From Scyliorhinus canicula (taxonomy: Eukaryota): a stretch of DNA of 64,000 bases. This document shows positions 2,851 to 56,464 of the stretch, piece after piece; the first letter of the stretch is position 1, and the number at the start of each line of letters is the position of its first letter. The notes under the pieces are model-generated. The model was not told the DNA's origin and ran no database searches. It saw only the letters and a list, made by a program, of their open reading frames with translations. The stretch covers positions 72,941,631 through 73,005,630 of the forward strand of contig NC_052156.1 in the NCBI RefSeq assembly GCF_902713615.1, read 5' to 3'. The position numbers and the translations under genes were made by a program.

Positions 2851-5269
2851 TCTGGTGCCATCTTCCAATAAAAGTGACAGAGATTTAATCCATTTGAGAC
2901 AAACCAGATTATTGAAATACCTAATTTACCTCACTGACAAAGCTTTAACTTTCAAAATGTAATTATTGGCATCAGAAAAAATTCAAAAGGACAGAAAAAA
3001 TCAGAGTCACTGGTCTGAAATAGCCATCAAATTCACTATCACCCAGACTGTAACCGTGAAGAGCTTTGGAGAGGCCCAGAAGAACATGCAGATGAGGGGA
3101 AGAAATAAAGGCACGTGAAGGAGGTGGGGAAGAGTTGCATGCGCGGGAGAAAGGAATAATGTTTATTTTAAAATTAAGATTTTTTTTTAAAAACAAAGTT
3201 TCATTAAACATCTTGAATGATTAAAACGTTCAAAAGTGAAATCTTCTAAACTTTCCCAGCACATTGGGAGGAGAACGGAAGGAAGCCAAGTGTTTTTTTA
3301 AATAAGGATTGACTGCAGAGAGCGCCGTCAATCCCTCACACTGGAATCAGCCAAGAAGCTTCCCATGCCGACTGCCTGTGTTCAGCCAGCTCACAGACTA
3401 CACTTCCGGCTTCATGAAACAACTCAGCATTAGATCACCACATTCCAAGGCGGGGGAGGGGGTTGGGTAGTCCACGTGGAACACCCTCCTGTTGCCTGAC
3501 GCCCTTTACTCTGCATACTGTGTAACAAACCTGTTAATCATGGTTAGTCCTGCTTCTCATATTGAACTGGAATTGAATGGGGCTATGGTCACGACAGAAG
3601 AATCTTTAGAAACAGGAAAAAGATCATTCAGTCTGACTAAACCTGAAGCTTTCTGATGGATCCAGTCCACCTGCTCACCACCCCGATGACCGCTCCCTAG
3701 TCAATTATTATAGGGGCAGTACTGTGCCTTAGTGAAAGGCTAACAAACATCAAATGAGGAAATATCTAACACCACAGGACTTTACAAAGGATTCGCCAAA
3801 CTAAAATGACATTGCCGTCTGAGAGAAAGCATGCGAGCATGGAGGGAGCCACCATTTGCTGTAGTCCTGCAAAGTCTGTCCCTTCTCAACACCCATCACC
3901 ATTTGGCTTGGCACAAGCTTTCTTTCCCCGTACCGTACTTCTGACACGTTACTACATCTCTATCTACTTTTCCTTTCTCCTTGGCAACACCACATTGCCA
4001 GAGGTTGTAACCACCAATTGGTTTTCTCCATTATATGGTCTGATTTAATGACTCAGCGTTATAACATTCTCTCAGTCCTCCGGTACCTGGTGTGTTACTA
4101 GACCAGGAGGATGAGAATATCCTAAGTTTAATCCCTGCCCTGTGTTGAGCCAGCACATCTCACGGGTTGAAGCCCCACCATTGTCCGCAACCTTAGTGGC
4201 CCTGGTTTTCCAAGGGTTAAGTAAAATAAATTCACAAGGCTTCCAGCTTCGGGGTGGCATTCTCCCATCTGGGGGCTAAGTCCTGTGGCGGGGCGGGACC
4301 ATGGAATGTTCCCCATGTGGAGACAGGGGGAATACCATGCTGGATCTCCTGGCCCTGACCTCATCCAGTTATACACCCTGGGAGGGTTTGTGCCATACTC
4401 TGTGATGGTGAGGGGTGGGAATGATAGTGCGGGTCCCACCCTTATATCTGGGCGCCATATTGAAAAGGTGCCCAACATCACAAACCCATCGTTGAAGAAA
4501 CGAGATGGACCTCTTCATGTCCTGGCTTTGCTTGTTTTCCCGCTGGGCGTCATGGAGAATCGGCAGTGGGAGGAAGATTCTGGTCGGTTCTTCATCTGTA
4601 TCCCATTAGTGGGATGCAAATCAGCTCCACGCTGGCCTCCAGCGGGTTTCCTGGCACCAGCCAGTTGAACTGCTGGTGGGGCCATGAGAGAATTCTGCCG
4701 TTGGTTCTTTCCACAGGAAAATAGGAGTATGAGCGCCAGGGCAAAAACATGTCTTAGTTTAGCTGTGTGACAAAGCCACTCCAGACTAATTTACCCACCA
4801 AATCACCCAAAACAAAGATCTTTTCCTTCGAACTGTCATTGTTTTTAACTCTCTACCATTAGCTCTGTTTGTATCCCAGATCCGTGCCTTTTCACTCGGT
4901 TTCTTTCTTAAACCCTTTGCCATTCAGTCCCTTTCTGTCTCGAATCCTCTGTCCTCCCCGGATATCAAACACTTTGAGACATTTTATGAGGTTAAGGATG
5001 CTGTACAAATGCAAGGTGTTGGTATGTGTTGAGGATAGTATTCTTCTTGGCTGTGATATCCTGTGTAGTTGACTGCCCCTTAATCATTTTAACTCAGCTT
5101 CACAGAGTTAATAGTCTCACTATTCCTTTTCGCGTGCATCTCCAATTCGCCCCCAGCGCTCCCAGTCCCCAGTCCTCCAGTGCCCCCAGACCCCAAACCG
5201 CCCCCAGTGCCCTGTCCAAACCCCACCCACCAGCACTGCCACTAGGCCCCCAGCACACTCACTCCTCAA

Positions 5270-6605
5270 CTCGCCCCCAGCACATCCACTCCCCAACACC
5301 CCGCCAGCGCACCCACTCCCCAACACCCCCCCAACGCACCCACTCCCCCACTCGTAAACCCCCCCAGCACACCCACTCCCCAACACCCCCCCCAGCACAC
5401 CCACTGCCCAACTCCACCCCCCCCCCACCCCCAGCACACCCACTCCCCAATGCGCACCCACTCCTCCCCAAGGTGCACCCACTCCCCAACTCCCTCCTCC
5501 CCCCACAGGGCACACCCACTCCCCAACTCTCTCCCCCCCCCTCCAGCACACCCACTCCCCCCCAGCGCACCCACTCCCCAACTCCCCCCCCAGCACACCC
5601 ACTCCCCAACTCCCCCCCAGCACACCCACTCCCCAACTCCCCCCCCATAAGGCACACCCACTCCCCAACCAGCACACCCATTCCCCAACCAGCACACCCA
5701 TTCCCCAACTCTCCCCCCCAGCACACCCATTCCCCAACTCCCCCCCCCCCCCAAGGCGCACCCACTCCTCAACCAGCACACCCATTCCCCAACTCTCCCC
5801 CCCAGCAAACCCATTCCCCAACTCTCCCCCCCCCAGCAAACCCATTCCCCAACTCTCCCCCCGCCAGCAAACCCATTCCCCAACTCTTCCCCCCCAGCGC
5901 ACCCACTCCCCAACTCCCCCCCAGCACACCCACTCCCCAACTCCCCCCCCCCCAAGGCGCACCCACTCTCCAACTCCCCCCTCCCCCCCAGCGCACCCAC
6001 TCCCCAACTCCCCCCCCCCCCAGCGCACCCACTCCCCAACTCTCCCCCCCAGCGCACCCATTCCCCAACTCCCCCCCAGCACACCCACTCCCCAACTCTC
6101 CCCCAGCGCACCCATTCCCCAACTCCCCCCAGCACACCCACTCCCCAACTCTCCCCCCCAGCGCACCCATTCCCCAACTCTTCCCCCCCCCCCAGCGCCC
6201 CCACTGCCCAACTCTCCCCCCCCCCAAGCACACCCACTCCCCAAGGCGCACCCACTCCCCCCAAGATGCACCCACTGCCCAACTCCCCCCCCCCCCTCCA
6301 GCACACGCACTCCCCAACACCCCGCAGCACACCCACTCCCCAACTCTCCCCCCCGCGCACCCATTCCCCAACTCCTCCCCCCCACTCCCCAACTCCTCCC
6401 CCAGCGCACCCACTCCCCAACTCCCCCCCCAGCACACCCACTCCCTAACATCCCCCCCCAGTGCACCCACTCCCCAACTCTTCCCCCCCACGCACCCACT
6501 CCCTAACTCCTCCCCCAGCGCACCCACTACCCAACTTCCCCCCCCAGCGCACCCACTCCCCAACTCCCCCCCCCCCCAGCGCACCCACTCCCCAACTCGC
6601 TCCCC
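5270..6605. repeat. C-rich minisatellite, unit about 28-32 bp (CCAGCRCACCCAYTCCCCAACT-Cn); G-quadruplex-prone on the minus strand
   Basis: Directly visible tandem array with variable C-runs. The minus-strand unit is GGGGGAGTTGGGGAGTGGGTGTGCTGGGG. Confidence 0.95.
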
Positions 6606-7024
6606 CATCACAACCACATCCAACTCGCCCGACATTTCCACTCCTTAACCTGCCCCCAACACCCCCATTCAGCAACTCGCCCCCAACAACCCCCATTCAG
6701 CAACTCGCCCCCAACACCCCCACTCACTCCCAATCCATCCCCTACCCTTTCCCACTCCCTTTTTCACCCTCCTTTTACTCCTCTCTTCAACTCTCTCCAG
6801 CCCCTTCGCATCACTTCACTCCCTCACCAGCTACTCCTCACCCCAACTCTCTTCACCCCATCCCCTCAACACCCCGCATTCCTCTCTCCTCACCCTCTTC
6901 TCCAACTCATCTCCTCACCCCAGCCCCTCTTTCTTCCTCATCCCTCCAGAGCTCTCCTTCCACACTCCTCATCCCTCTTCCTTCCTCACCCCCTACCCTG
7001 TTCCCTCAGCTCACAGTAACTCAC

Positions 7025-7138: not shown

Positions 7139-7690
7139 CTGGAACAACGAGGAGAGGAGGAAGGGAAAGGACAAAAAGTGGGAAAAAAGATAGCGATAAC
7201 CCACTAAGTGGCGGAAACCTGGCCTCAACTGGCTGTTAAAGCTCTTGTAGACAAAGCCCTGGCTTCTATGTGGATGAGAGAACTCTCTCTGTTACGGTCT
7301 CTCTGGGTTGCTCCTGTATTGTCTCAGCTCAGTACTGGGGGTTTCTCTCTCTCTCTCTCTCTGCCAGCCGTTGAAATTGGAAAGTACACACGCTGCAAAT
7401 CCCTAGAGCTGATTTGCTGGTGGGAAAAGGCTGGGAATGGGTGATCTAATCCGGTTCCGCCTCCTTCCTGCCTTTTATGTGCAATCCTACTGATTTCATC
7501 ATCCAACTATTCCAACTGCCAAATATAGCTGCTTTAACCCCTGCCATGCCAAACTGCTTTAAAAGGCACAAATCATACCTCTAACAGGCCTTGTGGAAAC
7601 AAAAGGGCTATGAATAGAATGCAGTGCAAGATCAATCAAAAAGCAGGGGGGGGAAAGGTGGGAAGACAGGATCAGAGGTTGGGGGAAGTG

Positions 7691-8900
7691 GAGAGGGTAC
7701 GGAAGGGGAGGGCGAGAAGAGAGGGTACGGAAGGGGAGGGCGAGAAGAGAGGGTACGGAAGGGGAGGGCGAGAAGAGAGGGTACGGAAGGGGAGGGCGAG
7801 AAGAGAGGGCACGGAAGGGGAGGGCGAGAAGAGAGGGCACGGAAGGGGAGGGCGAGGAGAGGGCACGGAAGGGGAGGGCGAGGAGAGGGCACGGAAGGGG
7901 AGGGCGAGGAGAGGGCACGGAAGGGGAGGGCGAGGAGAGGGCACGGAAGGGGAGGGCGAGGAGAGGGCACGGAAGGGGAGGGCGAGGAGAGGGCACGGAA
8001 GGGGAGGGCGAGGAGAGGGCACGGAAGGGGAGGGCGAGGAGAGGGCACGGAAGGGGAGGGCGAGGAGAGGGCACGGAAGGGGAGGGCGAGGAGAGGGCAC
8101 GGAAGGGGAGGGCGAGGAGAGGGCACGGAAGGGGAGGGCGAGGAGAGGGCACGGAAGGGGAGGGCGAGGAGAGGGCACGGAAGGGGAGGGCGAGGAGAGG
8201 GCACGGAAGGGGAGGGCGAGGAGAGGGCACGGAAGGGGAGGGCGAGGAGAGGGCACGGAAGGGGAGGGCGAGGAGAGGGCACGGAAGGGGAGGGCGAGGA
8301 GAGGGCACGGAAGGGGAGGGCGAGGAGAGGGCACGGAAGGGGAGGGCGAGGAGAGGGCACGGAAGGAGAGGACGAGGAGAGGGCACGGAAGGGCGAGGGC
8401 GAGGAGAGGGCACGGAAGGGGAGGGCGAGGAGAGGGCACGGAAGAGGAGGGCGAGGAGAATGAGGAGAGGGTACGGAAGGGGGTACGGAAGGGAGGAGAG
8501 GGTACGGAAGGGAGGAGAGGGTACGGAAGGGGAGGGCAAGGAGAGGGTACGGAAGGGGAAGGCAAGGAGAGGGTACGGAAGGGGAGGGCGAGGAGAGGGT
8601 ACGGAAGGGGAGGGCGAGGAGAGGGTACGGAAGGGGAGGGCGAGGAGAGGGTACGGAAGGGGAGGGCGAGGAGGGGGCACGGAAGGGGAGGGCGAGGAGA
8701 GGGCACGGAAGGGGAGGGCACGGAAGGGGAGGGCGAGGAGAGGGCACGGAAGGGGAGGGCGAGGAGAGGGCACGGAAGGGGAGGGCGAGGAGGGGGCACG
8801 GAAGGGGAGGGCGAGGAGGGGGTACGTAAGGAGAGGACGAGGAGAGGGTACGGAAGGGGAGGGCGAGGAGAGGGTACGGAAGGGGTGGGCGAGGAGAGGG
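7691..8900. repeat. 26-bp purine-rich minisatellite, left arm (GGGYACGGAAGGGGAGGGCGAGGAGA)n, about 46 units
   Basis: Near-perfect tandem array with two CpGs per unit. The first units are 28-bp variants. Confidence 0.97.
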
Positions 8901-48106: not shown

Positions 48107-49731
48107 GGGGGTGGGGGTTCAACCCAAAGCAATTGGAAACACAGACCTCTACTCAGTGGTTACAGAAATGCAGTGAGAAAATGCTCTCCAATCATCAGAT
48201 GGGAGGAAATTGCTACCTGTTGTGTTCTGTGGTTCCACGAATGACGAAGATGTACACAGAACATACATGTGTTCAACCAGGACAATGACTTATGAAACCC
48301 ATGGAAAAATAACTAAAAGATTTATATACAGAGAAAGCTACTCAAATTCCTAGGGAGATATTCTAAATGCGACCATCCTGCTGTACGTCCCACCACCAAC
48401 TGCCTGGCTGCTTCTGTCACGTGACACCACCCGCTGGCCGGAGGTCATACCTATGATTTCATGCACTGATATGCAACGTAATACATATATACATTTATGC
48501 ATGTCTTCACATCACCACATCCCCCTCCCTCTGAAGGCATAGATATTTACAAATATAACTTTTAAAAATAACATGCCGGATTGGTTGAAACATCTGTTGT
48601 TACAAGTTCAGTCTGTCAGGCTTGCACCTTACTCTGGACCTCCTGGCTGAGTTGGTGCGAATATCCCATCTTCATCTGTTGTTGGTCGTTCCACATGCAT
48701 CACTGCGGATGCGTCCTTGACCACTGGCTCTGCTGGGTGGTTTGTGTCCTCTTCAAGCTTAGGATTGCACCCCAGCTCTCCCACTAGATTCAGCATGAAA
48801 GGCCGTTGCACTTGTTGTAAAGGTGTTTGGCTCCTTCACAGGAGTGAATCTTCCTCAGTGATCACCATAAATGAGTATGGATCTGCCTGTTGCAAAACCT
48901 TTGCCAGCTTTACCCATCCATTGCCGTTGGGACCCTCTAGTCGGACGGTGTTGAGCTTCCTTGTAGATCGATCATTAATCTCTTTCTGCTTCCTCTTTTG
49001 AAGAAACAAGTTCCTCTTAATTTGTCGATTTATGGGGGACCCACTATGGAAGGCAAGGTTGTCTGTAGCTGCCGGTTCATGAGCAGCTGTGCTGGTGACA
49101 GTCCATTTATGAGTGGCGCCAAACGATAGCTTAGACACACCAAATATATATCTTCCCAGCTATTAAGGGCCTTCTTCAGCAGCTGCTTCACGATATCTAC
49201 ACCCTTTTCTGCCTTCCCATTCGTCTGGGGCTAGAGCAGTTGTGCCTGAAGGCATAGCAATGAGCAAATCCAGTCCATTCGTGACTTTTGAAACACAGCC
49301 CACTTTCCGACATGACAATAGATGGTACGCCACGTTGGGCAAAAATCGCTTGACATGCTGGATGACACACCTAGCAGTCGAGTTTACCAACTGTGCAACC
49401 TCTGGATAGTTCGAGAAGTAGTCAATAACTATCAGATAGTCTATTGAAATGGAACAGGTCCTTGCTCACTTTCTGCCATGGACTTGCAATGATGTCCCCC
49501 ACATGCATCAACTCATTGCTTTGTTTGCAGAGAAATTTCTGACACTTGTCACAGTAGTCAACCATATCTGCAATGTCTTGGGTGATGCCAGGCCAATAGA
49601 TCGTCTACCTGGTCCTACGTTTGCACTTATCGATGGCTAGGTGCCCTTCATGAAGCTTCTTAAGCATGAGCGGCCTCAAAGAATGTGGGATGATGATTCT
49701 GTGCTGCCGCAGAAGGAGACCATTTGCCTCA

Positions 49732-52700
49732 GAGTACCCAATTATTTTTTCCAATTAAGCAGCAATTTAGCATGGCCAATCCAGCTACCCTGCACATCTT
49801 TGAGTTTTGGGGGTTGATGCGCTATCAATCATACTAAAGACTCGAATGGGTACGATAGAGGCTTTATTACAATTAGATGTTTATCCTCCGACTGCAGCTG
49901 GTAGAATGGCTGCTCAGGAGAACTCATGCATATTTATATGGCTCCTTGTGGGCGGAGCTAGCCAGCAGGGGCTACCGGCGAACCTGGAGTATAGGTACTA
50001 CTGTACATCCCCTAATAAAGGCACACACACAATTACACAGTGGATCACCACATTCACCCCCTGTTAAAAATGGGTCCGGCGGGGATGGCGTGAAACTATA
50101 TACAGAATTGTGAATTATTTACAGGGGGGAGGAAAAACAATGTGTCCATCTTGTAACCCGGTGCCCGTCAGAGGTTAAGTCTGTCCGGTGGTCTGACAGT
50201 TCGCTGGGAGCGACGTAACAGTGGTGGCAATGTCTGTACAGGAGGTGTCGGCGTCGGTGCTGCGGAGTTGGTGCTGGCCAGTAGCTGGATGACTCCGGGA
50301 GCGTACCGAAATCTTCCTCGTCCTCTAGCGTGGGCAGGGGGAGGAGGGATGGACCTGGTGGGGCTGGGAGCGCGGGTGGCATGTGGGTGGGGAGGTGTGT
50401 GGGAGTGGGAGTGGCACCCGAGGGAGCCAGGTCCCTGAGCGAGACCGTATCCTGGCGGCCGTCGGGGAACTCCACGTAGGCATACTGGGGGTTTGCGTGG
50501 AGCAGGCGTACCCTGTCCACCAAGGGGTCCGCCTTGTGGAGTCGGACATGCCTACGCAGTAGAACCGGCCCTGGAGCTGCAAGCCAAGTCAGGGAGCGAC
50601 ACCCCGGATGTGGACTTCCTAGAGAAGGTAAAAACACGTTCATGGGGTGTGTTATTCGTGGCAGTGCACAGTAGAGACGGGATGGAGTGCAGTGCATCCG
50701 GGAGGACCTGCTGCCAGCGAGCGTCTGGGAGGTTTCTGGACCGTAGGGCCAGCTGGACGGCCCTCCATACCGTCCCATTCTCTCTCTCTACGTGCCCGTT
50801 TCCCCGGGGGTTGTAGCTGGTCGTCCTGCTGGAGGCGATACCCCTGCTGAGCAGGAACTGACGCAGCTCATCGCTCATGAATGAGGATCCCCTGTCGCTG
50901 TGGATGTAGTCAGGAAAACCGAACAGAGCGAATATGGAGTCGAGGGCCTTGATGACGGTGCCAGACGTCATATCCGGGCATGGGATGGCGAATGGGAACC
51001 TGGAGAATTCATCGACCACACTAAGGATGTGTGTGTTGCGGTCGGTGGAGGGGAGGGACCCTTTGAAATCCACACTGAGGAGTTCAAAGGGGCGGGACGC
51101 TTTCACCAGGAGCGCGCGGTCTGGCCGGTAGAAGTGCTGCTTGCACTCCACACAGACCTGGCAGTCTGTGGTGACTGTCCGTACTTCCTCGAAGGAGTAG
51201 GGCAGATTGCGGGCTTTGACGAGGTGGTACAACCGAGTGACCCCCGGATGGCAAAGGCTATCGTGCAGGGCACGGAGCTGGTCTACTGGTGCGCTGGCAC
51301 ATGTACCTCGGGAGAGGGTGTCTGGGACTCGCTGAGGCGATACAAGATTTAGTAATTATAGGTGGAGAGCTCGATTCTCCACCACAAGATTTTATCATTT
51401 TTGATCTTGCCCTGCTGCATGTTGTTGAACATGAAGGCTACCGACCGCTGGTCAGTGAGGAGAGTGAATCTCCTGCCGGCCAGGTAATGCCTCCAGTGCC
51501 GCACCGCTTCAACGATTGCCTGGGCCTCCTTTTCAACAGACGAATGTCGAATTTCGGAGGCATGGAGGGTGCGGGAAAAGAATGCCACGGGTCTGCCTGC
51601 CTGGTTTAGAGTGGCGGCAAGGGCGACATCTGAAGCGTCGCTCTGTACTTGAAAGGGCAGTGTCTCATCTACTGCATGCATCCCGGCCTTGGCTATGTCG
51701 CTCTCATACGGGCGAAGGCATGTTGTGCCTCGGCCGTGAGGGGAAACTGAGTGGACTATATCAGTGGGCGGGCCTTGCCGCGTATTGTGGGACTCACTGG
51801 GCGTAGTAGGAGAAGAACCCCAGGCAGCGTTTGAGAGCCTTGGGGCAGTGGGGAAGGGGGAGCTCCATGAGGGGGCGCATGCGGTCGGAATCGGGCCCCA
51901 GGAGTCCGTTTTGGACTAGATAGCCGAGGATGGCCAAGTGGTTAGTGCTGAACACGCATGTCTCCTTGTTGTACGTGAGGCTGAGGAGAGATGCGGTGTG
52001 GAGAAATTTGACAAGGTTGGCGTCGTGGTCGTGCTGGTCTTGGCCGCAGATGGTGACATAATCTAAGTACGGAAACGTGGCTCGCAGTCCGTACCGGTCA
52101 ACCATTCAGTCCATTTCTCTTTGGAATACTGAGACCCTGTTAGTGACGCCGAAGGGAACCCTAAGAAATTGATAGAGGCGACCGTCCGCCTCGAAGGCAG
52201 CGTATGGATGTTTCGATTTGCGGATGGGGAGCTGGTGGGTTACGGATTTAAGGTCAATCATTGAGAAGACCCAGTACTGTGCAATCTGATTGACCATATC
52301 AGATATGCGAGGGAGGCGGTACGCGTCGAGCTGCGTGTACCGATTGATGGTCTGGCTGTAATCCACGACCATCCTGTGTTTCTCCCCAGTTTTAACCACT
52401 ACCACTTGGGCTCTCCAGGGGCTATTGCTGGCCTCAATAATACCCTCCCGAAGCAGCCGCTGGACCTCGGACCTGATGAAGACCTTGTCCTGGGCGTTGT
52501 ACCGTCTGCTCCTAGTGGCGACGGGCTTGCAATCCCTAGTTAGATTGGCAAAAAGAGGGAGGGAGGGTCAACCTTGACGGTCGTGAGGCCGCAAACGGTG
52601 AGTGGGGGTAGGGGCCTGCCGAATTTGAGGGTGAGACTCTGGAGGTTACGTTGAAAATCCAGGCCCAGTAATAGTGTAGCACAGAGATTGGGGAGAACGT

Positions 52701-54554
52701 ACAGGCGTAAACCGCTGAATTCAACGCCTTGCACGGGGAGGTTGACCACACAGAAACCTCGGATTGGGACAGAGTGGGATCCGGAGGCCAGGGAGATCCG
52801 CTGGTTGGCGGGATGGACCATGAGGGAGCAGCGCCTTACGTGTCCGGGTGGATGAAGCTGTCGGTGCTCCCGGAGTCTAGTAGGCAGGAGGTCGCGTGGC
52901 CGTTGATTAGCACCATCGTCGAAGCGGTGGCCAGGTTGAGAGGACGGGACTGGTCCAGCATCATGGAGGCAAGCAGCGGGCGGTCGTCCGAGGAGTCCGC
53001 AGCAACCCGTGTCCAGCGGTCCAGTCCCAAGGGGGAGACAAAATGGCAGCGATGGCGCCATCCAAAGGACCTGTGGGGGAGAAGATGGCGGCGCCCATGC
53101 AGTGCACGTTGCGGGCGCGGGACAAGACGGCGGCACCCACTGGCCGCATGTGGACCTGGGGGGGGGGGGGGGAAGAGGAGAAGATGGCGGCGCCCATGGT
53201 GCGCCCGTTGTGGGAGCGGCGCAAGATGGCGGCACCCACAGGCCGCATGTGGACCTGGGGGGAGAATATGGCGGCGCCCACTGGTGCACGTGGCCCCGGG
53301 AGCAGAGGATGACTGTGCCCATTGTGCGATCGGCTGGGGGGGGGGGGGGGGAAGGGAGCGAAATCAGGCGCGATAGCGGCAACTGCGCGGGCCTGGCACT
53401 CTGTCGCAAAGTGGCCCTTGCCGCAGGATTTGCAGGTGGCGGCGCGGGCTGGGCAGCGCTGGCGGGGTTGCTTCTGTTGGCCGCAGAATTAGCAGTGGAG
53501 ACCCCCACAGTGCGCGGTGTGGCAGGCAGTGCAGGCATATTGCGTAGGTGTGGCCCCAGACCGGGGGGGGGGGGGGTTGCGGGATCCATGAGGGGTAGGA
53601 TGGGTGGGCCGCGCAGCAAGCGGGGTAGGACTGGACATTACGAGAAGCGACCGTCATGAGAGCGCTAAAGCTTTCGCCTCTGTTAGGTCGAGTGCGGCCC
53701 CTCCCAGCAGTCGATGGGGTCCGATGCAACCCCCGTCACGAATGCATCACGCATGAGCAGATTAGAATGTTCCGTGGCCGTGACGGCCTGGCAGCCGCAG
53801 TCCCGTAAGAGAGGGATAAGGGCCCGCCAGAAGTCTTGAATCGACTCACCAGGTAGTTGTACGCGAGTGGCGAGTACATGCCTTACAAATAGAGCGTTTG
53901 TCTTCTGGATGTAGTTTTCTTTAAGGAGGTCCATGGCACCTGCGTAATTCGGTGCATCCTGTATCAGCAGGAACACGCTGGAGCTCAACCTTGAGTGGAG
54001 AACCTGGATTTTCTGAGCTTCCATCGGCTCGGGGGTCACTGAGTTGATATAGGCCTTAAAGCAAGCCAGCCAGTGATTAAAGTCCTTTCTGGCGTTCGGC
54101 GAGTGCGGATCCAGCTGCAGGCGATCTGGTTTGATCCTGATGTCCATGATGTGGAAAATCTAACTGTAATAAATTGATGCGGTATCAATCGTACTAAAGA
54201 CTCGAATGGGTACAATAGAGGCTTTATTACAGTTAGATGTTTATCCTCCGACTGCAGCTGGTAGAATGGCTGCTCAGGAGAACTCATGCATATTTATACG
54301 GCTCCTTGTGGGCGGAGCTAGCCATCAGGGGCTACCAGCGAACCTGTAGTACAGGTACTACTGTACATCCCCTAATACAGGCACACACACACACAGACAC
54401 ACACAATTACACAGTGGATCACCACAGGGGTGAAACCCACGCAGACACGGAGAACATGCAAACTCCACACGGACAGTGACCCAGAGCCGGGATTCGAACC
54501 CGGGTACTCAGCGCCTTGGGCAGCAATGCTAACCACTGTGCAACCGTGCTGCTC
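49732..54554 (-). mobile_element. HE1-type SINE inserted in Gypsy A and itself split by Gypsy B
   Basis: 13-bp TSD accatttgcctca at 49719-49731 and 54555-54567. The halves at 49732-49814 and 54432-54554 rejoin into a standard SINE. Confidence 0.9.
49815..54426 (-). mobile_element. Full-length, frameshifted Gypsy LTR retrotransposon 'B' (gag-PR-RT-RH-IN)
   Basis: LTRs at 54175-54426 and 49815-50052 differ by 10 substitutions plus one 14-bp microsatellite indel (manual count). TSD GGGGT; PPT AACAGGGGGTGAA. Gag starts at 54147; LLDSGST; IDLKS, VPFG and YLD; QSDASD; VDF, SDRG and ERENG. Confidence 0.95.
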
Positions 54555-56464
54555 ACCATTTGCCTCACTGAGTTCCAACTGTACATTGTAGTATCCAGAG
54601 CAGGAACCTTTAAGCCACCCCTCTCAGACATTTGACCAACTTTTGCAGGACCGTATCTGCGACTGTTCCTGCCTTAATGAGACACAAAGTCTCATTGGAG
54701 ACTAGAAGCGACGGGATTGACATGAAGTTGAACACAGTCATCAACCACGCAACCTCATTGATTCCCGTGGTGTGTGAGAGAGAGAGAGCGAGAGAGCAGG
54801 TACTTGCCGGCGGTAAATGAGGCAACCCATACACAGTCATGAAATGTTTCTAAACCCGTAACTAGCCCAAGGAATTTCTTTTCAATCTGATCATACCGGT
54901 GCTCTGTTTCGGTCATTGCTCTCGACACATATGCCACCGGCAGCCAGCTGTCGTCTACACCCTGCTGCAGAAGTACTGCTCCAAGACCATCCTGAGATGC
55001 ATCAGTGGAAATCTTTTGTCTTCTTTGTCGGGTCAAAGAAAGCAAGGACTGGCACTGTCGTCAGTGAGATTCGCAGCGCATGCCAGTGTTCGTGTTTGGG
55101 GGACCACTGAAAAACTACATCCTTTTTTTTTAAAAATCGAGTCCAATAGCTGGGATGTTTTGGAGACCAGGTGAGGAATAAAACTGCCCATAAGGTTGAT
55201 CATCCCAAGTATGCGTAAGACACCTTTTTTGTCTGTGGGTCTCGGTATGGCTAGGATAGCTTCAATCTTTGCATCATCCGGCTGCATACCTTTTGCAGAG
55301 AGCCTGCCCCCTAAAAAGGTGATGTTACCAACTCCGATTTGGCATTTTATCTGATGGAGCTAGAGGCCATTCTTGCTGACCTTTTGTGGGACTCATCATG
55401 CTCCTCACGTGTGGAACCCCAGATTATAATATCGTCAACATACTCCTTCCACTACGTGCTCCATGGCACAATGAAAAATGTATGCCGAACGGTATTCGCC
55501 AGAAGCAGTAGAGCCCAAAGGGGGTGTTGAAGGTTCACAACCTTGTGCTTGCATTGTCGAGCTTAAGCTGCCAGAAATCTTGCGACGCATGTCACTCCAG
55601 CCATTTTGCACGTTATTTCTTCCCTCTTCGGGATAGGGTAGTGCTCCCTTTTTATGTTCAGGTTGAGATCCTTGGGGTCCATACATATCCTCAGTTCGCA
55701 ATTCCTTTATTTTACACACACCATGGAGTTGACCCAGTCGGTGGGCCTCTCCATGAGCCTGATGATGACTAAAGCCATTATTCTTTATAACTCGGCCTTT
55801 AGTTTGTCCCTCAGCAGTGCAGGCACATGTCTGGGCGCATGCATGACCGGCTTCACATTCTCCTTCAGCTGAATGCAATATATGGGGTAGGGTGCCAAAT
55901 CCTTGAAACACCTCCGCGTGGTTCTTCATAATCAATTCAACAGATATAATCGGCGGGGTGCCATGTTTCCTTCAGTGTACACCCTCTTGACGAGCCGGGC
56001 TCTTCACACGCCTCCACTTCAATGAGCAATTCGTGCTCTGTCTCCACTTGACGATACCATCCAGCATGTCCTGTCCTTGACAGTGACTTTGAGCTCACAT
56101 GCTCTTGGGATCATTTTTGGCTTGACGTTTGGTCGTCCCACCACTGACAATGGGATCAGATTGTCATATCAGCTCCCATATCAAGCCTACAGTTGATTGG
56201 CTTGCCATTAACCATTAGCAGGATTGTCCATCTGTCCTCCATGGTCCCCGCATTCGCCTCACTGTGGCTGCAAATTTTAAGAAAGGAATCTTTGCTTTGG
56301 CTGGATGAACCTTTTATGTCCCTTACAGAGATCCTGCTCACATCAACCCGGTCATCTATGCATTTGTCCTTATCCGCACTCCTCGCTTCTGTTCGGGTAA
56401 TTGTCAGACACAAGGTGAATTGCCGAGCAAAATGATTTGTTCTGCTATATTTGTGACAAACTAG

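Follow-up and report, generated by a model that had tools for sequence, protein, structure and literature searches.

How does a retrotransposon without a tRNA primer site begin minus-strand DNA synthesis? The question is raised by a decayed Gypsy element of 4.6 kb on the minus strand of the window, by which we mean the whole 64,000-nt stretch of Scyliorhinus canicula DNA analyzed here. TG...CA LTRs, a target-site duplication, a polypurine tract and the order protease, reverse transcriptase (RT), RNase H and integrase identify it as a Ty3/Gypsy LTR retrotransposon (Table 1). Pfam recovers these four domains in Gypsy order, the protease weakly, and, as had been noted originally, no chromodomain after the integrase in the window. 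The best solved-structure match of a profile of its clade is Ty3 Gag-Pol. The two LTRs differ at 10 aligned positions and by a 14-nt TG expansion. The insertion site lies inside a short dispersed repeat, which we take to be a SINE, and both sides (49600-49814 and 54427-55500) carry what by eye resembles the remains of an older Gypsy pol, indicating a nested insertion. Elsewhere in the window, positions 5190-6740 and 7635-8900 hold a long degenerate repeat rich in C and a tandem array with a 26-bp unit.

Table 1. Positions in the window of the element's features.
Feature	Position	Strand	Remarks
5' LTR	54175..54426	-	TG...CA ends, 252 nt
3' LTR	49815..50052	-	238 nt; arm copy 49878-49863, no local partner
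Target-site duplication, upstream copy	54427..54431	-	5 bp, ACCCC
Target-site duplication, downstream copy	49810..49814	-	5 bp, ACCCC
TATA box TATAAAT	54292..54298	-	from sequence; spacing kept in sister subfamilies
Initiator-like GCCATT	54265..54270	-	inferred +1 = A 54267, 31 nt past the TATA T
LTR arm, predicted self-primer	54223..54238	-	final six bases (54228-54223) AATAAA
Short U5 hairpin TTGAT/ATCAA	54174..54189	-	adjoins the helix of arm and primer site; invariant in shark subfamilies, not general
One-base spacer (A)	54174	-	separates LTR end from primer site
Primer-binding position	54158..54173	-	complementary to the LTR arm; no TGG
Decayed gag-pol	50170..54147	-	several broken frames; Gypsy order gag, protease, RT, RNase H, integrase
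Polypurine tract ending GGGGGTGAA	50053..50064	-	before the 3' LTR; relatives have similar ends

The original prediction was that the position of the primer site is occupied by a complement of the element's own LTR. Recomputation bears this out: the LTR arm (54238-54223) and the bases at 54173-54158 are exact reverse complements over 16 nt. By a rough estimate, chance would place a complement of this kind somewhere in the LTR with a probability of 6e-8, the fold z-score of the fold-back is -5.75 and none of 200 shuffles folds equally well. The further details that had been described also hold, namely the single A between LTR end and complement, the absence of a TGG-starting tRNA site after this LTR, the gag ATG at 54147, 27 nt past the LTR, and the missing partner strand beyond the 3' LTR, where the copy of the arm carries one C>T difference. 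The proposed ATTGAT/ATCAAT hairpin across the LTR boundary is present, but its last pair makes use of the first base of the primer site as well.

Other copies in the host genome allow the pairing to be followed through sequence change. Both 16-mers occur exactly at 98 genomic loci, while their reversed control has none, and 21 of the 29 nearest copies pair perfectly. Sister subfamilies were retrieved with gag queries, giving 151 host copies for examination; two extra gag queries under strict cut-offs found 2 and 0 loci, and the first look yielded ~28,000 gag candidates, a figure that is not a copy number. Copies were anchored by the LTR end together with a TAAA-type hexamer, which succeeded in 132 of 151; the inspected ones among the 19 failures are decayed, truncated or interrupted. 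Pair positions 1-6 are partly fixed by the anchor, whereas positions 7-12 are independent of it and are 93-95% Watson-Crick in the anchored copies, with two to three pair types each. Pairing is perfect over 12 pairs in 85 copies, which fall into 16 arm types. With one copy per arm type (n = 16, a set chosen for perfect pairing), both sides have changed at 7 of the 12 pairs, the covariation score reaches 0.372 compared with 0.080 in shuffled and at most 0.053 in slid alignments, and RNAalifold finds the helix of arm and primer site unaided. Only one pair, a compensated one, separates locus L284 from the window. Since the copies are related, copy counts overstate the number of independent events. 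Three copies (L202, L210, and L300) have an LTR arm that matches one sister subfamily and a primer site that matches another; they are possible recombinants and may be useful for strand-transfer mapping.

The pairing extends far beyond this genome. An RT fragment used as query matched 1275 proteins. Within the best 120, the named matches belong to sharks, rays, corals, an isopod, insects, a snail and Trichuris, and the nearest of them suggest a cartilaginous fish as host. For nucleotide comparison, 81 distant loci were collected from metagenomes and contaminated bacterial assemblies; 41 of them include the gag start. These 41, with RT identities to the window of ~46-69%, were scored under one fixed scheme: CA, then a single spacer base, then 12 positions. 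At least 11 of 12 positions pair in 37 loci, a count that includes two mis-anchored loci (L059 and L080) in which the fold-back is visible on inspection, and all 12 pair in 29, for which at most 2 of 30 shuffles do as well. Inspected cases among the four loci that fail the rule are again decayed, truncated or interrupted. The arms of distant relatives are unrelated in sequence, and the complement lies nearly always one base past the CA of the LTR. At positions 7-12, pairing is 0.94 within a family's own LTR and primer site and 0.38 across families. Arm length ranges from 11 to 19 bp and leader length from 15 to 47 nt, and the gag of most full-length relatives has two CCHC-type knuckles. In an RT tree of 37 rows, which holds the clade and one other host Gypsy family but no chromovirus and whose bootstrap has not settled, the clade is split from that family by a long, fully supported branch. 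Hence, both the genome-wide covariation that the original prediction had called for and the persistence of complementarity in diverged subfamilies are found. Judging from sequence, the fold-back is real and a trait of the whole clade.

Several features of the distant loci deserve mention in their own right. In L032, L060, and L090 the primer site reaches or enters the gag start codon, with a leader of 16-19 nt. L005 shows a polypurine tract, an LTR, and then a primer site and gag, i.e., tandem elements with a shared LTR. Ten bacterial metagenome-assembled contigs (L324-L333) contain this animal clade, most likely by host contamination, and NCBI labels some proteins of the clade as bacterial integrases. 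No relative of the clade was found in the viral contigs searched.

Where an LTR ends on its right side is determined by the 3' terminus of the primer for the minus strand. Hence the bases directly past the LTR are where a primer should leave its trace. Among 45 distinct host tRNA-like sequences, which carry 10 anticodon labels and form an incomplete set, the best match to the primer site is 8 nt, so that the proposed comparison of the post-LTR bases with host tRNAs returned nothing longer in this set; Rfam likewise gives no tRNA match in the region. Two control families of the same host, another Gypsy and a family with the integrase before the RT, have TGG sites and a self-complement of 4-6 nt, as judged from the loci with a placeable LTR (4 of 10 fetched). 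The tRNA-primed control Gypsy, which is Mag-like by our reading of its motifs, has an RT only 31% identical. That a host tRNA or tRNA half primes the element, with the LTR complement incidental, draws on the incompleteness of the tRNA set and is largely refuted by the lack of TGG and by the short best match; moreover, the site covaries with the LTR across the 16 arm types of the host and across distant families. Because the site changes with the LTR of each family, a single tRNA cannot read it, and because its bases differ wholly between families, no single host RNA fits as primer. We consider a tRNA primer extremely improbable.

The LTR's own arm is the only sequence found to match the bases at the LTR end, and self-priming is therefore the likely function of the pairing. 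Taken over all its versions, self-priming is in our judgment very probable; the covariation, the fixed one-base geometry and the absent tRNA site argue well for the originally proposed self-priming in an element without a chromodomain. In the version that we prefer, the arm ending in AATAAA would serve as primer for minus-strand DNA synthesis. Transcription would start ~29 nt upstream of the arm (at 54267), and the 5' end of the RNA would fold back onto the primer site. An RNase, by analogy with the Tf1 element's own RNase H, would then nick the RNA at the end of the duplex, just 3' of AATAAA, where a second helix appears to begin in most distant relatives. The product would be a capped primer of ~45 nt of which the last 16 nt alone are annealed, and the repeat available for the first strand transfer would measure just 15-25 nt, from the nick to the poly(A) site. 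The primer would be copied into the plus strand, and the primer site would thus be rewritten from the arm in each cycle, which could explain why arm and primer site stay matched during sequence turnover. For Tf1, the available text of one study describes the copied primer site as present in about half of the cDNA (PMC11042837).

The position of the arm within the transcript distinguishes this version from priming as in Tf1, whose first 11 bases pair with the primer site and are released by an RNase H cut that falls between base 11 and base 12, as described in the available text of PMC7175516. A TATA box is found in 104 of the 132 anchored host copies. In 95 of these 104 it precedes the arm end by 73-75 or 83-85 nt, and in 86 an initiator-like motif follows 30-32 nt past it. 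Between predicted start and arm end, 10 of 11 subfamily representatives have 43-54 nt and one has 33 nt. The start is thus probably ~30-40 nt before the arm, i.e., the arm would lie inside the transcript, and the conserved spacing of TATA box and initiator lends weight to the original suggestion that the pairing segment is downstream of the likely, so far predicted, start. In the 34 non-shark loci scored, TATA boxes are found in only two.

Alternatively, transcription might start at the first base of the arm, in which case the TATA and initiator prediction would be wrong and priming would be of the plain Tf1 type. In fission yeast, elements start at the 5' end of the self-primer, according to the portion consulted of a preprint (bioRxiv 10.1101/2022.12.06.519325), the start is a prediction here, and four raw RNA runs aligned to 53700-54380 (257, 59, 185, and 174 reads) show no pile-up of start or poly(A) ends in the LTR. 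However, both the regular placement of the TATA box and an initiator-like motif at ~+31 across subfamilies of differing sequence speak against it, and we regard a start at the arm as quite unlikely. The RNA reads are mostly 90-95% alike to the window and therefore come from sister copies, whose transcription they show; no listed holder of the sequence is on record as RNA. In three of the runs, sense reads of a sister subfamily (3, 27, and 25 reads) cover the gag start and depart from the window sequence at 54160, an AG close to the primer site's end that may be a splice acceptor or mark a different leader. A hairpin starting at the predicted +1 stands out in only 1 of 11 representatives and was dismissed. 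Another hairpin spans the predicted start and joins U3 with R (window 54283-54247; also L115, L131, L182, L257, and L242), with z-scores of -1.9 to -2.6 in 6 of 11 representatives; in RNA it could arise at the 3' end alone, immediately upstream of the poly(A) signal.

Returning to a start upstream of the arm, the next question is how a primer end could arise at the end of the duplex. The Tf1 cleavage substrate is not reproduced, because the third duplex is unsupported and the U5 hairpin shows no covariation and is often absent. A duplex of leader and LTR, as in the Tf1 pretzel, beats shuffles at p<0.05 in only 2 of 37 cases and was dismissed as a feature of the clade; for the U5 hairpin, no covariation is seen in host types, and 10 of 19 distant families do not have it. 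By contrast with shuffled sequences (2.7 bp), a helix starting at the first base past the arm has a mean length of 4.2 bp in 25 hand-picked distant families, a value reached in 0 of 300 shuffles, and a helix in this place could mark a cut site. We regard a nick at the duplex end, leaving a capped primer of ~45 nt, as rather probable, although the 5' flap of ~30 nt and the effective repeat of ~20 nt are awkward for this model.

The primer might instead stem from the other copy of the arm, i.e., from the 3' LTR of genomic RNA or from a short transcript that terminated at the 5' poly(A) site, and be trimmed to the end of the duplex. Such a primer would require no internal nick and would leave the full repeat of ~60 nt for strand transfer; it would also account for a start upstream of the arm and for an arm that finishes at the poly(A) hexamer, close to the RNA's 3' end. 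The same covariation and geometry are expected from it, and the lack of a pretzel is in keeping with it. Nevertheless, the local 5' fold-back is very stable (-29 kcal/mol when folded from the predicted start, z -3.46) and would form first and occupy the site, the helix exactly past the arm resembles a feature of cut sites and no precedent was found in the literature searched. On balance, we hold this source of the primer to be unlikely, while sequence alone cannot tell which arm copy supplies it.

The helix also involves the poly(A) signal. Host arm types end in AATAAA or ATTAAA, ends that the anchor favors, and the swap between them is compensated in the primer site. In the 25 distant families, the arm ends exactly in a canonical hexamer in 12 and within one base or on inspection in 3 more, while it ends in a non-canonical hexamer in the other 10; in 3 of the 25 (L035, L040, and L329) a canonical hexamer is unpaired in the loop. 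The pairing is kept with a non-canonical hexamer in L330, L072, and L038-L040. The steadier feature across families is an arm that ends in AAA opposite a site that starts with TTT. Folding the 5' RNA from the predicted start buries the hexamer in the 16-bp helix, whereas folding of the 3' RNA is weaker (z -1.71). The predicted 3' fold pairs the hexamer too, and the asymmetry between the two ends is thus only one of degree. The original idea that AAUAAA is hidden only in the 5' LTR is therefore plausible for the shark families, with their AATAAA or ATTAAA ends and compensated swap, but does not hold in general. That the helix hides the 5' poly(A) signal is plausible for many families, a reading to which we give slightly less than even confidence, and such masking would be a likely side benefit of self-priming in families with AATAAA or ATTAAA at the arm end. 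It is not what holds the pairing in all families, as far as their sequences tell.

One could go further and assume that the fold-back only masks the 5' poly(A) signal, or serves packaging or translation control, and that an unnamed host RNA primes. The arm ends at a canonical hexamer in shark types (partly by anchoring) and in 15 of the 25 distant families, the duplex reaches the gag start codon in some relatives, and retroviruses are described, in the available text of two articles, as regulating their 5' signal by RNA structure (PMC2645353; PMC3694450). Yet the 3' end of a primer defines the LTR boundary, the bases at this boundary differ wholly between families and families without a canonical hexamer keep the pairing. 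A role confined to masking or the other controls is thus very unlikely, and self-priming remains the reading that we carry forward.

Placement of the clade was approached by its domains and termini. No chromodomain is among the domains listed for 120 homologues, nor among the 25 families, out of 29, that are listed for 37 full-length relatives; each of the four families outside the list matches at most one member. Chromovirus references for comparison were sought in three ways: 20 chromodomain loci lacked an integrase within 1.5 kb, a DUF4939 search gave nothing and SH3_Tf2-1 matches were rejected since they belong to the family with the integrase before the RT. Cigr-1 is, we presume, a possible lead for the identity of the clade. 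Among compact animal Gypsy clades, CsRN1, Saci2, Mag and Cigr-1 are described as ~4-4.6 kb long with short LTRs in the text available from PMC11117352. The LTR begins with TGTGGTG, in agreement with the CsRN1 motif TGTGGYG (PMC3601003, as far as available), but the CsRN1-type elements GyRex2/Boudicca are given a tRNA-Trp site in the consulted part of PMC3587641, whereas the window element has no TGG. Saci2 differs by 4-bp duplications and tRNA sites in the accessible text of PMC12471100, as opposed to the 5-bp duplication found here and in L032, L036, and L066. The RT motifs of the clade were not found in the supplements of PMC12471100 and PMC11117352 by search.

Within the open literature searched, which excludes subscription papers and Repbase, no description of the clade's priming was found. 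In the texts available, self-priming appears only for Tf1/sushi-type elements, Tcn1 and plant copia TAR (PMC6317226; PMC4600332; PMC5341516; PMC3601003), priming is unexplained in Skipper and SM-Tcn1 (PMC5006619; PMC2864245) and the main texts of mollusc, annelid, and pufferfish clade surveys do not match 'PBS' (PMC6238403; PMC8556966; PMC11117352). Since Gypsy self-priming is tied in this literature to Tf1/sushi chromoviruses, a large animal clade without a chromodomain would widely extend its range and would probably mark a separate origin. Such a clade offers naturally covarying sequences with which to study how RNA is cut into a primer when the Tf1 pretzel is absent, and how 5' and 3' poly(A) signals are distinguished in a 250-nt LTR. 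Moreover, finders of primer sites that expect a tRNA will miss or mislabel such elements. As 3' tRNA fragments are described as silencing through the primer site in the available text of PMC7472051, self-primed elements would lack this target, from which an escape may be inferred.

How does the clade compare with known systems? Tf1/Tf2 of Schizosaccharomyces pombe, Tj1 of S. japonicus and the Tf1/sushi group share with it the lack of a tRNA site, post-LTR bases that pair with the own LTR, the Gypsy domain order and a U5-side hairpin, the last here in shark families. Unlike the Tf1/sushi group, the clade has no chromodomain, two CCHC knuckles in most full-length relatives, an arm that ends at or near the poly(A) hexamer and a short leader. 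While the Tf1 primer starts at +1, the arm of the clade is predicted 30-40 nt inside the transcript, and the third duplex of the Tf1 pretzel, as laid out in the portion consulted of bioRxiv 10.1101/2022.12.06.519325, is unsupported. Outside this group, self-priming has been predicted for the plant Ty1/copia TAR elements (Houba and Osr-1) and Tcn1 from at least 10 complementary bases starting 0-5 nt past the 5' LTR (PMC6317226, available text). The same arrangement, with no tRNA site, is found here; those are plant copia or chromovirus elements, whereas ours form a compact animal Gypsy clade. TAR indicates that self-priming can arise outside chromoviruses. The HIV-1 polyA hairpin and foamy-virus 5' poly(A) suppression likewise place RNA structure over AAUAAA near the 5' end, but the HIV-1 hairpin forms at both RNA ends (PMC2645353, as far as available), while the partner strand of the clade lies outside the LTR, at the 5' end only, and is the primer site itself.

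We tentatively suggest that the clade, which would span sharks, rays, corals, arthropods, a snail, and a nematode by protein homology, came to prime without a tRNA independently of Tf1/sushi, with an internal primer that ends at the poly(A) signal, one helix that both primes and differentiates the LTRs and a route unlike that of Tf1, be it a nick or 3'-end trimming. The clade works like Tf1 self-priming and is not a member of Tf1/sushi on the two defining features tested, chromodomain and pretzel; its clade-wide feature is a variant of the Tf1-like self-priming mechanism, which is itself already known.
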